A stretch of DNA of 40,000 nucleotides. Origin: Peribacillus sp. Aquil_B1 (GTDB lineage Bacteria > Bacillota > Bacilli > Bacillales > DSM-1321). The notes under the pieces were generated by a model, which did no database searches, was not told the DNA's origin, and saw nothing but the letters and a program-made list of their open reading frames with translations. A program made the position numbers and the translations under genes. Below, piece after piece: positions 3,147 to 38,050 of the stretch; positions within the stretch are counted from its first letter, which is position 1, and each line of letters starts with the position of its first letter. The DNA is taken from assembly GCF_022603275.1 (NCBI RefSeq), contig NZ_JAKXEE010000003.1:460960-500959 (forward strand), given 5' to 3'.

Positions 3147-3685
3147 ATCAGCTCATATCCCCTGCCATGGGAAATTCCCCAATCAAAAAAAGACTTTTCC
3201 CGCGGGGCATAGCGGACCAATAAATCACGAATTACCCCTCCATGCGTCATTAGGGCAAATCGGTTCTCCTTACAGGCAATCAATTGTTTCCAGCCATTAT
3301 TCACACGTTCGGAAAATGCCGGATAACTTTCACCCCCAGGCACCAGTGCCTCCATGGGACGTTCCAGCCAATTAAGATAATCTCCATCTGTCTTCAACTC
3401 ATGATACGTCCGCCCTTCCCAATTGCCGAAGTTCATCTCACGGAACGAAGCGTTTTTGACCGGAACTGCATTCGGAAACAGAAGTCGTACAGTTTCCACA
3501 CAGCGGGGCAAATCACTGCTGTGAATTTTTTCATACTGTGGGTAAGAACCCCTTAAGTCCAGTATTTCCTTTTCTCCTTCGATACTTAATGGAGAATCCG
3601 TCCAGCCTAAATAGGCCTTTCGTTCATTTGCCACTGTCAGCCCATGGCGAAGTAGTGTAATAGCCACAATATCAGCCATAACCAA
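3062..3685 (-). CDS. cobC: Alpha-ribazole-5'-phosphate / AdoCbl-5'-phosphate phosphatase (histidine phosphatase family)
   Basis: 207 aa. Has the RHG catalytic motif near the N-terminus (ITLLRHGLT), later THGGVIR, and sits in a B12 operon. A GTG at about 3667 is an alternative start. Confidence 0.8.
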   Translation of the reverse strand: MVMADIVAITLLRHGLTVANERKAYLGWTDSPLSIEGEKEILDLRGSYPQYEKIHSSDLPRCVETVRLLFPNAVPVKNASFREMNFGNWEGRTYHELKTDGDYLNWLERPMEALVPGGESYPAFSERVNNGWKQLIACKENRFALMTHGGVIRDLLVRYAPREKSFFDWGISHGRGYELIWEDRNSIRRGERCTLLQEAPIMAKPNG

Positions 3686-4440
3686 AGCTCAACCCCTTCC
3701 ACGGATGCCCCCAGTACATCCCCCGTTATCCCACCGAACCAACTGACGATTTTACGTTTTATATAAACCAGGAAAAACACCGCAGCCAGACACATGACGA
3801 AAAATAAGGTGACAAGCTTAAAATCGATGACCCAGGCAAACGCCAGACTTACAAGGATGTACAGCCAATAAATGGGCAAACTGCTTTTCGTTACTGCACT
3901 TTGAAAAAAAGCACCGAGCCCCTCTTTTTTAGCGAGCGGCATCCGGATGAGTAAATAACCCATCACACATTTGCTTAAGAGCGGAAGGGCTATGATCAAG
4001 AAGTATGTCCATTCATTTACCATTTGGACAATTTCATAGATAAATAGAAACCGGGCAGCCAACAGGACTATGACGGAAATGACACCGAATGCACCTGTCC
4101 TGGAATCCTTCATGATTTCCAAACGCCTATTCTTATCCTGATAGGAAAAAAAAGCATCACTTGCATCAATCCAGCCATCAAGATGCAAACCACCCGTTAA
4201 CGCCATCGTTAAAAACCAAAGGAAAAAGGCAATCGCAAGCGATGACAATGGGGTCCATTCCACTAGTGCATATAAAACGCCGCCCAATATCAAGCCTAGC
4301 AAAAGACCTACTAATGGAAAGGTCTGAATGGCACGGTGAATATATTTCTTCTCCATCGGAAGCTGCTTCTTTATTGGAAAGACCGTAAAGAACTGCAGGT
4401 TAATTAAAAATCCGATCACTCCGCTCATTCCTCCATGCAC
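3637..4440 (-). CDS. cobS: Adenosylcobinamide-GDP ribazoletransferase (cobalamin-5'-phosphate synthase)
   Basis: 267-aa polytopic membrane ORF with the CobS motifs GGLHLDGWIDASDAF and GGITGDVLGA. Confidence 0.9.
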   Translation of the reverse strand: MHGGMSGVIGFLINLQFFTVFPIKKQLPMEKKYIHRAIQTFPLVGLLLGLILGGVLYALVEWTPLSSLAIAFFLWFLTMALTGGLHLDGWIDASDAFFSYQDKNRRLEIMKDSRTGAFGVISVIVLLAARFLFIYEIVQMVNEWTYFLIIALPLLSKCVMGYLLIRMPLAKKEGLGAFFQSAVTKSSLPIYWLYILVSLAFAWVIDFKLVTLFFVMCLAAVFFLVYIKRKIVSWFGGITGDVLGASVEGVELWLWLILWLLHYFAMG

Positions 4441-10544: not shown

Positions 10545-10765
10545 TGTATGGCAACAATATCATTACGGACTTCTTATGGTCTGCCACACACCTTCCCATC
10601 CGCGTAGGTTACAGGTGTACGAATTTTGGCAGGTCTCCTGGCTCATGGTCATCGTCAACGGCACCTTCCCATATCTCATACAGTGGTACACAGCCGTCAG
10701 CTCCCATATACAGTGGCGGGACCGCGCTGGCATTTCACCAGCTTCCCTTTTAAGTCATTACGACA
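10545..10765 (-). promoter_or_regulatory. Cobalamin (AdoCbl) riboswitch
   Basis: Minus strand carries AAAAGGGAAGCTGGTGAAATGCCAGCGCGGTCCCGCCACTGTA, CCACTGTATGAGATATGGGAAGG, and the B12 box GAGCCAGGAGACCTGCC (10628-10644). It lies directly upstream of btuF. A TATAAT hexamer sits at 10803-10808 (minus). Confidence 0.92.
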
Positions 10766-10871
10766 CCAAATCGTTCATATGTATATAATTTTCACTGCCT
10801 TCATTATACACCATGTAAGAATCGATTATTATATGATTTTTCTGAACAGGTTCGAAATGATCCTTCCACCT

Positions 10872-11948: not shown

Positions 11949-12022
11949 GTCCCAGTAGCTCAGCAGGATAGAGCGACAGCCTCCTAAGCTGTAGGTCGTA
12001 GGTTCGATTCCTATCTGGGACG
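11949..12022 (+). tRNA. tRNA-Arg (anticodon CCU)
   Basis: Hand-folded cloverleaf. Acceptor GTCCCAG/CTGGGAC plus discriminator G. D arm GCTC-AGCAGGATA-GAGC. Anticodon arm ACAGC-CTCCTAA-GCTGT. T arm GTAGG-TTCGATT-CCTAT. No encoded CCA. Confidence 0.93.
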
Positions 12023-12069: not shown

Positions 12070-12151
12070 CGGTGACATATTCGGTGACATAGCGTTTTTT
12101 CTCGTGGTCTGTAGGACACCGATACGGCGAACGTAGGACACCGGTGACATA
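12070..12151 (+). repeat. Direct repeats between the tRNA and int: CGGTGACATA x3 and GTAGGACACCG x2 (candidate integrase arm-type sites / int promoter-operator)
   Basis: CGGTGACATA at 12070-12079, 12082-12091 and 12142-12151. GTAGGACACCG at 12111-12121 and 12133-12143. Inverted repeat AACGCTATGT (12033-12042) / ACATAGCGTT (12088-12097) followed by a T6 run. Confidence 0.5.
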
Positions 12152-34528: not shown

Positions 34529-36355
34529 TTATGTTCCTGTTGGCTTCGTTTTATATGTCCTGCGCATCCTCCCGCCGCCGATTACGCTGATTACTCCGGC
34601 CAAACTATCCGGTAAATCGTCATGCTGGCCCGTTGGGAATTGCTCTAATTGCTCTAATAACAAGCTGTGATGCTTATTGAAACGCAAAAAGCCACTTTCA
34701 CAAAGAGGCTCCAATGCTTCTATTCGCTTTTCTTTCTGTGTTCCGTGGTGTCCGATTGGCTTAAGTTTTGTACGAAAGTAAATACGTTCCTTCGCTAATC
34801 GTTCGCTTAATTGTCGGTGCATGTCGTGTCCAAGGCCGATCGTCTCTACGGCAAAAACAACGTGCTGGAATTCCTTTATTTTCTCGACTGCCTTATCAAG
34901 CGCTTTGTGTGCGAGGCACTTTTGCGCCCAAGCGTCCACGATATAGATAACGCCAGTCACTCGATTCCTTGCTATCGTAACTATCGCGTTATAATCTGAG
35001 CGAGAATTCTTGCCGGCTGCGATGTCCCAATAAGCGTAATAGTCTAACGGCATCCTGCGACCGTTATCGTATAAATCAGACTCGTCGAAATAACGGAACG
35101 TGCTCGGATTGAATATTTGCGATTCCTCATCGCGCGGCTCGTTCTGATATTCCGTATTAAAGGCTTTTGAGCCATTCGACCACTTCCATGTTAATAGCTT
35201 CCATATGGACTGTACTTCCGGCCATAGTACCTCGACCCCTTCGTCCATTTCCGCTTTGTTTGCCTCGTAGAATTCGCGGGCTTTTGGTTCGCGTTCATTA
35301 ATCGGAATGGAATCGCTTTGATATATCGATTTGCATTCGTCCCATAAGTCCATACGGTCCGGCTCTTTAATAAGAGCGCGATACTTCTTCGATTGGAAGT
35401 CGGCGCGATTGTGTATTAAGTCATTGAGCAAACTTGCTTCGTGTACGACCGTTCCCATTACGATAAAGGCCGTCTTCTCGCCTTTCGCATCTCCTAACGG
35501 CATGACCGTCTGAGCCATCCAATCCTTAAGCTTTTCGCGTTGCTCGTTCGTGCTTGCGTTGGTCTTAATATCTTCGAGGTCATCCCCGATAATTAAGTCC
35601 GGACGTACGCCCTGCCAATTTCGGCCCCTGAGCGCTTGGCCCGTGGATGCCGCTTGAACCATCGTTAAAAGCTTCGGCGTTCCTTCTTTGCCCTGCGGCT
35701 CCCATGCGATAAAGCTTGTCGTATTATCCTTCGGGTTTAATTGTTGCTTCGGCGATAATAGAGGTCCGAAATCCTCGCGAAGCTTTGCGTTATTTTTAAG
35801 CTGCGTTGCCAGCCATTCAAGATTCGGTTCCGATACGGAAGGAGTTTCCGAAATGATGATTATATATTTACGCTTGCGAAAACAGGTTTCTCTCAGTGGT
35901 GCGGCCTTACTTAAATACGAACTTTTTCCGTGACTTCTAGGTGCTGCGCGTGCAATCTTGGCGTTTTTATTCTCGTTTGATACTTCGTCAATACTGGCGC
36001 ATATTTCACGGTGAAACTCCGCCCCTGCTTCCGCTGACTCTAATTCGAAACCGTCCCAATTCCCACCATTTCCGGGATTAAAGGGCTCGCTAAAGTATTC
36101 GAGTGAGAAGTAAAGCAAGTCGACCTCTGCGCGATGTATCCGTTTAAGTCGTTCTAGTTCGTCCATAAAGCCTTCAAGTTCTACGTAATCGGCCGGAGTA
36201 AAGTCGCCATCGCTTTCCTTTGCGAGCATGATATCGATTAACTCTGCCGTGCTGTCGATTAATTCTTGGCGTTCTTCGCGCCCGATCCATTTTCCGCTAA
36301 CCCATGCGATAGCGACCGCCTCCTTTCCGTTTAGTTTTATTACCGCTGAAATCAC
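34529..36355 (-). CDS. terL: Terminase large subunit (start codon uncertain)
   Basis: 608 aa. Walker A-like APRSHGKSS. Walker B LIIGDDLED. C-terminal RNase-H-like nuclease region (WDIAAG...). GTG 36355 has no Shine-Dalgarno. The first in-frame ATG is 36229. A strong Shine-Dalgarno at 36319-36328 precedes an in-frame ATC at 36310. Confidence 0.88.
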   Translation of the reverse strand: MISAVIKLNGKEAVAIAWVSGKWIGREERQELIDSTAELIDIMLAKESDGDFTPADYVELEGFMDELERLKRIHRAEVDLLYFSLEYFSEPFNPGNGGNWDGFELESAEAGAEFHREICASIDEVSNENKNAKIARAAPRSHGKSSYLSKAAPLRETCFRKRKYIIIISETPSVSEPNLEWLATQLKNNAKLREDFGPLLSPKQQLNPKDNTTSFIAWEPQGKEGTPKLLTMVQAASTGQALRGRNWQGVRPDLIIGDDLEDIKTNASTNEQREKLKDWMAQTVMPLGDAKGEKTAFIVMGTVVHEASLLNDLIHNRADFQSKKYRALIKEPDRMDLWDECKSIYQSDSIPINEREPKAREFYEANKAEMDEGVEVLWPEVQSIWKLLTWKWSNGSKAFNTEYQNEPRDEESQIFNPSTFRYFDESDLYDNGRRMPLDYYAYWDIAAGKNSRSDYNAIVTIARNRVTGVIYIVDAWAQKCLAHKALDKAVEKIKEFQHVVFAVETIGLGHDMHRQLSERLAKERIYFRTKLKPIGHHGTQKEKRIEALEPLCESGFLRFNKHHSLLLEQLEQFPTGQHDDLPDSLAGVISVIGGGRMRRTYKTKPTGT

Positions 36356-37175
36356 GGCTATGTAAGACTGCCACCGGTCCGCTTCGTTGAGTGGCGTAGG
36401 CAGTTCGATTATTCCTACCGTTAGGCATGCGATAGGAATTCAGAGTTTAAAAATGATGCGCGGATTAATTCTGCACTAATCCTAGGAAATCGGAAGGCCC
36501 GACCCCCTTGCGGCCCCCTCTCGGATCGTCTTGCGGAGGGCACCCGGCGGCCATTCGTTAATAAAAATTAATTATAATAACGTTTTATTATTTATTTTCT
36601 CGCGTACGTACGTATATGCCACGCTATCCCTTGCGTATGGATGCGGTAGGGCAGGCGGTCGGCAGGCGCTAGGCTTGCGGTGTGCTTGCTTCGTCGGCCG
36701 GCGCAGTACTGTCGAGTGTGCATGCGATGTGTAGCTCGGAGCTGTGCGGTACTGCCAGTCGGTAGCCCTGCGGTGTGCAGGCGGTAGGCTTATCGTAGCC
36801 CCTGCGGATATGCACCGACACTCCCTCCGTTTATACACCGGCATACACTCGGTATTCAAAACCTTGTTTACATAATAGATATACGCGGTAGTTCTCCGTT
36901 TGCACAAACGCTGTCGTACCGCCGTTCTTCGACTGCACATTTATTATCGAATATACACCGTTATATACATCGTTGATATAGCGCGGTTTATGGCGCCGGT
37001 GTTCGCATCGTGCCGCCGATTGGACTGCATAAAGGAAACGCCGAAAAGTTTCGAGGAGGGCACGCGTCAGATACCCGCAACCGATGTAATCAGCCGAAAG
37101 TATATCCGTAATGCACAACGTTAAACAGTCCGATATAAGCCACCGTGACAAGTTCCTTCATATATAATAGTCCGC
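36356..37175 (-). other. 820-bp non-coding, GC-rich, repeat- and hairpin-rich spacer between terS and terL (function unknown)
   Basis: No ORF with an ATG or Shine-Dalgarno. Decamer family ATAT(A/G)CACCG (plus sense) at 36614, 36808, 36831, 36879, 36951 and 36963. Permuted 22-nt unit at 36662-36685 and 36768-36791. AT island at 36558-36600. Hairpins at 36412-36438 and 36462-36482. Confidence 0.6.
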
Positions 37176-37574
37176 TTATTCCTCCGTTGTGGATTCGTTA
37201 GTCTTACGCATTGCTGCTATCCTCGCCTTAACTGCATCGAGGCTCTTATCCGTACTCACTTCCGCATTAACTTCGACTCTATCCGTAAGCATATCGTTAG
37301 CTGTAAGGATTAGCTTGGCGGCGGCTGCGTTCCTATCTTCGACTACTGCGTTAATCATTGCGTCCATCATCTCCGGTAATCTGTCCTGAGTACCACGTAT
37401 AACCTCACGTTTAAATTCCCTTTCGAATAACGGATCCTTCCGCCAGTTAAGCAAAGTATTAACGTGTATGTCGCACTCCTTCGCAATCTGTTCGAATGTT
37501 AGACCGCCACGTTTAGGCGTAGCCAGTAGCGCCATTGCCTTATAATGTTCTGGTCCTAGTTGTGATAATGTCAT
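37176..37574 (-). CDS. terS: Terminase small subunit (phBC6A51-type HTH protein)
   Basis: 132 aa. N-terminal HTH (LTFEQIAKECDIHVNTLLNWRKDPLF). Sits at the head of the packaging module. Confidence 0.75.
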   Translation of the reverse strand: MTLSQLGPEHYKAMALLATPKRGGLTFEQIAKECDIHVNTLLNWRKDPLFEREFKREVIRGTQDRLPEMMDAMINAVVEDRNAAAAKLILTANDMLTDRVEVNAEVSTDKSLDAVKARIAAMRKTNESTTEE

Positions 37575-37718
37575 CGTCTTTCCCTCCTTTGATTTCGTAC
37601 TCCTTGCGAGATATATAGCTTAATGAGTAAACGTTCTAGTGCGTTCATTGCGTTAACTCCTCCGTTTAGTAGGTGCGATTTCATATACTGCATAGTTAGG
37701 TTTTAAGGTGCAAAAAAT

Positions 37719-37776
37719 AATACACTGCTTTTAGGGAACAAAATCCCGGAAATACACTGCTTTTAGGGAACAAAAT
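37719..37776. repeat. Two perfect 26-bp direct repeats (AATACACTGCTTTTAGGGAACAAAAT) spaced 32 bp start-to-start, next to an AT-rich tract
   Basis: Copies at 37719-37744 and 37751-37776. An AT-rich tract follows at about 37770-37870. All of this lies inside the 476-bp intergenic region between the 310-aa gene and terS. Confidence 0.85.
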
Positions 37777-38050
37777 AAAAAAGGTAAAATCACTATATAT
37801 GGTATGATTAACGTTTATATTACAAGGTTTATTTACTACATATTGTGTTTTTGCTCATTTATTCAGAATTCTATCCCTCTTAATCAGTACTAACTCTAAG
37901 GGCTTGAACCCTGCGCTCCATGAACAAAGAGCATGTTCATTTCGCGCCAAATGTTTTCTCTTTTAAGAACCTACGAAAAGGGAATATATATAGGGCAAGT
38001 AAGGCACGTTAGGGCCGGCTTGCAATGTCTTAGGTCGGAACGACTTACGC

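Follow-up and report, generated by a model that had tools for sequence, protein, structure and literature searches.

The spacer between terS and terL in a Peribacillus prophage as a probable single copy of a short direct terminal repeat

Content of the spacer between terS and terL

We analysed a 40,000-nt stretch of DNA from Peribacillus sp. Aquil_B1 (contig NZ_JAKXEE010000003.1, positions 460,960 to 500,959; hereafter the window), which carries a prophage, and focused on the long spacer between its small and large terminase genes, terS and terL. All genes around the terminase part of the window lie on the minus strand. The terS gene (37176-37574, minus) encodes a small terminase of the helix-turn-helix (HTH) type, with matches to PF13022 and to phrog_2538/terminase-small-subunit PHROGs, and the open reading frame (ORF) of terL (34529-36355, minus) matched Terminase_6C and phrog_38. 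Measured to the edge of the terL ORF, the spacer is 820 bp long; its true length is probably 865 bp, since terL most likely starts at an ATC at 36310. A preliminary description of this DNA had reported 820 bp without a credible gene, and the gene coordinates agree with this, as does the finding that none of the four long ORFs in the spacer matched a Pfam family above threshold. Its further statement that these ORFs lack an ATG fails for the ORF at 36572-36940 (minus), which begins with one. When the spacer was compared by blastx with every ORF in the spacers of related loci, matches were found in the closest relative only, in several frames and on both strands, so the similarity lies at the level of DNA and not of protein; the reading frames also differ between the window and its relatives, which again places the conservation in the DNA. 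In one public assembly a 106-aa gene has been called inside the spacer, over the predicted left boundary and the iterons described below (window 36831-37151, minus; 3424-3744 in locus L117). No relative keeps its frame, and the call is therefore probably spurious.

The base composition and folding of the spacer were less unusual than had been described. The GC content was 51%, compared to 45% for the window, and reached 63% only in 36601-36830, so that the term GC-rich suits this segment and not the spacer as a whole. The minimum free energy of folding did not differ from that of shuffled sequences (z-score -0.55 for the sense and +0.28 for the antisense strand), and a richness in hairpins beyond chance was thus not upheld. 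The individual elements named earlier, namely the AT island, the palindrome CGTACGTACG and the hairpin arms at 36462-36482, 36412-36438 and 36367-36404, were all found in their places.

We compared the window with the contexts of TerS homologues (L002-L014), a genome relative (L001) and 80 TerL relatives from viral contigs (L028-L107). Among about 70 phage and prophage loci examined, terS and terL were 409-2821 nt apart in every locus that held both genes. The shortest spacers (409-607 nt) contained no long or homologous ORFs, and the longer ones held variable cargo in the form of an opposite-strand 183-aa tyrosine recombinase, serine recombinases of 237-243 aa, a 185-aa invertase-like resolvase and small ORFs. 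On the terS/terL strand the family spacer consisted of TATAWT-GAAGGAAC ... ACGTTGTG ... TTACATCGG directly after the terS stop, then CTGRCGCGTGCC..CCGAAAnTTTTC, then repeats of CGNTGYATAW, a block with G5/C5 runs and, last, YTRGYG-N7-AATCCGCGTATCAAAAATAACGTTTGAC. Because every related locus has a spacer of at least 409 bp with the same order of blocks, the earlier picture of an insert splitting terS from terL is wrong; judged by these alignments, the spacer is ancestral to the whole terS/terL family, and only its central 347 bp are particular to this prophage. The TerS of the window is 100% identical to a named Peribacillus protein, in keeping with a Peribacillus host, and 79% identical to the TerS of the closest relative, L002.

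A blastn search of the spacer (distant mode) against 50,697 phage records gave no match, because the homology is visible only in short blocks. A TerS-based scan of viral contigs found nothing, and a scan of the same kind of contigs with the pattern termed Module A returned chiefly chance matches in unrelated coding DNA, the real ones being L022 and L025 only, which are duplicates of known loci; the Module C pattern had 0 matches in metagenome contigs. Two Metabacillus loci (L013 and L014, 4001-8390) were of a different make-up: a terS homologue (56% identical) lies ahead of a terminator, a pair of small ORFs and then genes for host-like pyridine-nucleotide oxidoreductases, and terL is missing. 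They may mark the end of a prophage, or be a remnant or a satellite-like element with terS alone.

Virion ends of related phages and the predicted repeat

The TerL of the window was 60% identical over 100% of its length to that of the Halcyone cluster, and 51% identical to those of Lietuvens (Sporosarcina) and 268TH002/007 (Bacillus subtilis). Its TerS was 45% identical to the C7Cdelta/Halcyone TerS, 41% to Lietuvens ORF99 and 34% to 268TH002 gp98. These closest free-phage relatives of the TerL are all phages with direct terminal repeats (DTRs); more distant ones include Mu-like phages. The Halcyone-cluster phages of Paenibacillus larvae and Tripp have DTRs of 377/378 bp, seen as sharply bounded double coverage (PMC4706335, PMC6070908), and 268TH002/007 have DTRs of 310 bp, determined with PhageTerm (PMC9476937). 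The 268TH002 record has an exact 310-bp repeat at its termini, a short DTR of 437 bp is annotated in the Lietuvens record, and a Tripp-like P. larvae prophage holds one repeat copy only (Abraham et al.). In the linear maps of the Halcyone-cluster, Lietuvens and 268TH002 phages, terS comes last and terL is one of the first genes. In a circular or concatemeric genome, the virion ends therefore fall in the spacer between the two.

The known termini were then aligned with the blocks of the window. In the window, the 94 nt from the end of terS to the predicted left boundary (37082-37175, minus) contain the blocks TATTATATATGAAGGAAC, AACGTTGTG and GATTACATCG, which lie directly after terS in all relatives. 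The left end of the C7Cdelta and Lietuvens virions falls directly after the position equivalent to CATCG. With the ends of the C7Cdelta record joined, this boundary (marked by a slash) reads ...GATTACATCC/CTTGCGCAGTCCTGACGG..CCTCCGAAACTTTTCAG; the window reads GATTACATCG/GTTGCGGGTATCTGACGCGTGCC..CTCGAAACTTTTCGG, and the Lietuvens repeat begins in the same alignment column. On the right, the repeats of C7Cdelta (position 377) and Lietuvens (437) end in one column, immediately 5' of the YTRGYG...AATCCGCG block, and the window has GGAT/TAGTGCAGAATTAATCCGCGCATCA at the aligned position. The ends of the 268TH002 repeat lie at the same offsets from both blocks, with the right terminus again immediately 5' of the right-flank block. 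The left cut falls 11 nt 5' of the CTGRCGCG core in 268TH002 and, as aligned, in the window. The alignments place both cuts 11-12 nt 5' of a block in which an A/T dyad follows a CGCG core, which suggests that the two may be recognised in the same way.

Profiles built from the boundary blocks matched about 50 loci, and the repeat lengths that they gave for the three known cases were correct to within 1 nt. In the window they placed the repeat at 37081 to 36479, that is, a predicted DTR of 603 bp (36479-37081, minus), both boundaries of which align with experimentally determined termini and which is present as a single copy, as expected of the integrated form. At its left end lies the block GTTGCGGGTAT-CTGACGCGTGCCCTCCTCGAAACTTTTCGG (37041-37081, minus), conserved in 52 distinct loci and a candidate terminase recognition or cut signal. 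Its right edge is formed by a block with G runs, GGGGGCCGCAAGGGGGTCGGGCCTTCCGATTTCCTAGGAT (36479-36518, minus), which is 94% identical to L002 and has counterparts with G5/C5 runs throughout the family. Just outside follows the right-flank block TAGTGCAGAATT-AATCCGCGCATCATTTTTAAACTCTGA (36440-36478, minus), the candidate terminase signal of the right end, with the consensus AATCCGCGTATCAAAAATAACGTTTGAC in 59 distinct loci. Across the family, predicted repeat lengths clustered at 268-440 bp and rose to 766-1269 bp where the boundary blocks enclose a serine recombinase or other cargo; the 603 bp of the window lie between these two ranges. RNAalifold found no consensus pairs in the two boundary blocks (52-59 sequences) and merely a 6-pair helix of negligible energy in the conserved blocks after terS. 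A promoter role was also considered for the TATAAT-like block that follows terS; the 1.7 kb scanned contained one weak promoter-like site, fewer than shuffled sequences, and no terminator-like sites.

Recombinase genes adjoin or occupy the repeat in many relatives: that of the 183-aa tyrosine recombinase is found immediately beyond the right boundary, and those of the serine recombinases (237-243 aa) lie between the boundary blocks, inside the predicted repeat (L001, L003, L006, L011, L012, L110, which is Lietuvens, and L111, which is 268TH002; L004, L007, L009 and L028; L008). The window has no recombinase gene at its terminal repeat. It is conceivable that these enzymes serve a Cre/lox-like circularisation of terminally repeated DNA.

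The decamer CGNTGYATAW occurs exactly four times in the 40-kb window, each time in the spacer and on the minus strand, starting at 36808, 36831, 36951 and 36963. Two of these iterons form a pair, CGATGTATAT and CGGTGTATAT (36951-36972), at +110 and +122 from the predicted left end; the others are CGGTGTATAA (36831-36840) and CGGTGCATAT (36808-36817). The decamer family reported earlier thus stands for the four exact copies and, less strictly, for 36614 and 36879, each one or two positions off the motif, whereas the weaker copies listed at 36841, 36976 and 37101 are poor. The motif was about 30-fold denser on the sense strand of the spacers (0.66 per kb) than in the flanking 428 kb (0.02 per kb), with 51 sense and 10 antisense occurrences. 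In relatives that have the motif, it falls within the predicted repeat, between +65 and +130 counted from the left end, and is often paired at a distance of 11-12 nt; Lietuvens has its pair at +110/+121. Helical phasing, conservation of primary sequence and the lack of consensus pairing in 52-59 aligned sequences together lead us to infer that the iterons and conserved blocks act in protein-DNA recognition, most simply by the HTH-type TerS. A resemblance of the decamer to repeats at attL had also been suggested. These are three exact copies of CGGTGACATA at 12070, 12082 and 12142 (plus), just downstream of a tRNA gene (11949-12022); they represent a different motif and a separate triplet, which plausibly consists of integrase arm-type sites at the prophage end.

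These results point to the spacer as the single prophage copy of a short DTR, together with the signals at which terminase cuts, and to the prophage as a Peribacillus member of the Halcyonevirus-like DTR phages, a reading to which we give a probability of about 0.85; the exact ends at 37081 and 36479 are likely, with somewhat less confidence. Of the ideas put forward in the preliminary description, that of a packaging recognition region with iterons was essentially right, and the termini of three relatives, which align to blocks of the window, sharpen it to a concatemer-junction or DTR region. After induction, replication would yield concatemers in which terS and terL are separated by one copy of the repeat. 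TerS, an HTH protein, would load on the phased CGNTGYATAW iterons, on the dyad-like blocks beside each boundary or on both, and TerL would cut 11-12 nt 5' of the CGCG-core block at each boundary. The repeat would be duplicated so that each packaged genome begins and ends with one copy, as in the established models for T7 and T3. After infection, the two copies would permit circularisation, as a result of which the prophage would retain a single one.

Several points weigh against this interpretation. The ends of this Peribacillus prophage are predicted by homology only, and the right-flank block of the window and its closest relatives (ATCATTTTTAAACTCTGA) deviates from the family consensus (ATCAAAAATAACGTTTGAC). 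An unexplained 347-bp centre makes the predicted repeat, at 603 bp, longer than those of typical cargo-free relatives (268-440 bp). The assignment of the iterons to a particular binding protein is hypothetical, and a covarying hairpin at 36412-36438 indicates some RNA-level function nearby.

The hairpin, the terL start and the central segment

The hairpin (36412-36438, minus) has a 9-bp stem and the loop (A/C)AUGCCUAA, and lies outside the predicted repeat, with about 100 nt between it and the terL start downstream. It was found in eight loci (the window, L006, L009, L011, L012, L028, L060 and L066), in which the loop sequence AAUGCCUAA is invariant and the hairpin lies upstream of terL or its cargo. 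Across these loci 90% of cells were paired, all nine pairs changed on both sides, and the observed value was attained in 0 of 500 shuffles. The G.U pairs occur in the sense strand only and would become A.C mismatches on the opposite strand, which bears out the earlier remark that the non-canonical pair of this stem is G.U only in the minus-sense RNA. The hairpin is not in Rfam. It behaves like RNA, as a small cis element and not a large RNA.

The start of terL was assigned by alignment with relatives. In the window, a ribosome-binding site GGAGG (36319-36323, minus) precedes a likely ATC start (36308-36310; both elements within 36308-36323), so that the gene would span 34529-36310. Among 60 distinct contexts, the aligned start codon was ATC in 45, ATG in 8, TTG in 4, and GTG, ATA and ATT in 1 each, and in the terL family the ATC lies 7-9 nt past a strong AAAGGAGG. 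Loci L015 and L016 have no canonical in-frame terL start upstream, and the annotators of C7Cdelta flagged its terL as a 'difficult start call'. By this alignment the terL of the family most likely begins at a non-canonical ATC, and translation probably does not begin at the GTG at 36355. An out-of-frame ATG beginning 4 nt downstream of the ATC (gcATGg) opens a mini-ORF of 2-3 codons (window 36299-36307, minus), which reads ATG GGT TAG in the window and ATG GGT TAA, ATG GGT AAA TAA or ATG GAT TAA at the aligned positions of relatives (L001, L015, L016); it is probably a by-product of conserved Ala-Trp-Val/Ile codons.

The centre of the predicted repeat (36519-36865, 347 bp) contains two phased plus-strand arrays of GCGGT (36643-36687 and 36746-36791), the palindrome CGTACGTACG (36603-36612) and a 43-bp AT island with 7% GC (36558-36600). 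A repeated unit of about 22 nt had been noted here, and it was confirmed as a repeat family (36655-36676, 36666-36687 and 36770-36791) that resolves into two clusters of plus-strand GCGGT at 11-13 nt spacing (36644-36678 and 36747-36782), the motif being 12-fold enriched. By blastn, the segment had no homolog on either strand in L002 or any other locus. It is 100% identical in three other Peribacillus assemblies; these copies represent the same prophage and are thus uninformative on selection. Two derivations of the centre were tried and rejected: a decayed cargo gene, for which blastx against all 948 ORFs of relatives' spacers gave no match there, and an inverted form of the relatives' G-rich repeats, for which blastn on both strands gave no homolog. 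A scan with the 14-mer CGGTAGGGCAGGCG for the inversion idea returned more than 120 chance matches and was uninformative.

Family-wide, the middle of the repeat is its variable part, ranging from about 70 nt to an entire recombinase gene. The centre is probably a lineage-specific filling of this part and may act as filler, as additional binding sites or as a module of its own, for instance an origin. Such a separate functional module, for example an iteron-type replication origin or a recombinase/partition-like site, would be compatible with the terminal repeat and is suggested by the enriched and opposed phased arrays, the adjoining AT island beside the palindrome, the identity of the segment in the three other assemblies and the recombinase genes that relatives hold at the corresponding position. 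We consider it unlikely: iterons and an AT island are present as in an iteron origin, but the AT island and the GCGGT arrays are absent from all relatives, the identical assemblies are silent on selection, and no recombinase or initiator gene adjoins the segment in the window. No initiator gene was recognised nearby, and a PHROG search of the genes upstream of terS gave families of unknown function only.

Two further features of the window were recorded. Upstream of terS, a 476-bp AT-rich gap (37575-38050) contains two direct copies of about 25 nt (ATACACTGCTTTTAGGGAACAAAAT) at about 37700-37780, some 32 nt apart and with 28-35% GC. This area likely regulates the terminase operon and may contain a late promoter or an operator. 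A cobalamin riboswitch (112.5 bits) was detected at 10611-10785 (minus), in host DNA beside the prophage.

Rival readings and known systems

A large structured non-coding RNA, GOLLD/ROOL-like or of a new class and transcribed with the terminase genes, had been proposed for the spacer. The region is probably transcribed, because it is flanked by co-oriented genes; the hairpin at 36412-36438 covaries with G.U pairs in the sense strand only, small CUUUA...UAAAG hairpins recur past the right block in some relatives, and a weak match to GA-cis RNA (RF02987), the only Rfam match in the spacer at E <= 10, was found at 36503-36603 (minus). This match, however, scored 20.7 bits (E = 0.17), below the gathering score of 34.7, and sits in a window-specific segment absent from relatives. 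At gathering thresholds, no Rfam family was found in the spacer of the window or in 11 relatives, and the GOLLD, ROOL, HEARO, group I and group II models had no match in the spacer even at E <= 10. What the spacer has in common with GOLLD, ROOL, HEARO and the introns is limited to its prophage context and its want of coding potential; it differs from them in having no covariance-model match, no excess folding energy over shuffles and no consensus structure. With RNAalifold, the two most conserved blocks gave no pairs and the block after terS gave hardly any. Those blocks coincide with DNA ends, and the middle between them is freely swapped between relatives, even for protein genes. We regard a large RNA as very improbable. 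An atypical or decayed intron or homing element in front of terL, the other earlier proposal, is hardly credible at all. Mobile-looking cargo (recombinases and small ORFs) does occur in relatives' spacers and an HNH endonuclease gene follows terL directly in Lietuvens, but terL has its own Shine-Dalgarno sequence, its own start and a complete conserved N-terminus, and no related phage was found with adjacent terS and terL; with a spacer in every relative, no intron-less allele exists.

A packaging site used by a headful (pac) mechanism, or by another one that yields no defined terminal repeat, has in its favour that homology predicts the ends without proving them, that the right-flank block has diverged in the sub-lineage of the window and that the distant TerL relatives include Mu-like phages. 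Even so it appears improbable, given that both boundary blocks are present and in register and that TerL is 51-60% identical to those of three DTR lineages, from three host genera, whose ends all lie at the same aligned positions. The DTR reading can also be extended. In this more speculative form, which we regard as rather doubtful, a wide family of Bacillota DTR phages would share an undescribed bipartite terminase signal, with cuts 11-12 nt 5' of CGCG-core dyad-like blocks and a phased iteron pair at about +110, coupled to RNA-level control of terL by the AAUGCCUAA-loop hairpin and the AUC start, and the 347-bp centre would be an extra module (origin or recombination site) inside the repeat.

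Most likely, therefore, the feature between terS and terL belongs to known biology, being an ordinary but rarely annotated phage feature and not a new RNA or intron. The DTR reading removes the false lead of a giant phage RNA or intron and explains the constant hole between terS and terL in this family, into which gene callers sometimes put spurious ORFs. The boundary blocks make virion ends and repeat lengths predictable from sequence alone for dozens of uncultured relatives, and they offer concrete candidate recognition sites for the terminase of a DTR family in which none has been mapped so far. The ATC start of terL and the recombinases in or beside the repeat bear on the control of terminase dosage and on genome circularisation.

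Among known packaging systems, the R sites of lambda cosB, the pac hexamers of P1 and the pacL/pacR boxes of SPP1 resemble the locus in having helically phased short repeats beside a terminase cut site and near the terminase genes. They differ from it in producing cohesive or headful ends and not DTRs, and the iterons of the window are putative TerS sites only. The concatemer junction of T7 and T3 contains a short DTR, one copy per junction, with sequence-specific cuts at both repeat ends. The likeness here is one of established working principle without sequence or protein homology, since T7 and T3 have a T7-type terminase, a podovirus context and repeats of just 160-230 bp. Closer by descent are 268TH002/007 and Lietuvens, whose ends lie at equal offsets from the CTGRCGCG and AATC..CG..ATCA blocks; unlike the window, they carry the 183-aa tyrosine recombinase gene just beyond the right boundary, and the interiors of their repeats are unrelated to that of the window. 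The closest counterpart is the Halcyone cluster. Its ends are measured whereas those of the window are predicted, the host genus differs, the terL start codon is ATG in C7Cdelta and most likely ATC in the window, and the predicted 603-bp repeat of the window has its private 347-bp centre. Common to both are the order terS, repeat, terL in the circular map, the single repeat copy in the prophage, as reported for the related P. larvae prophage, and the two boundary blocks, which align base for base, for example GATTACATCC/CTTGCG in C7Cdelta and GATTACATCG/GTTGCG in the window.

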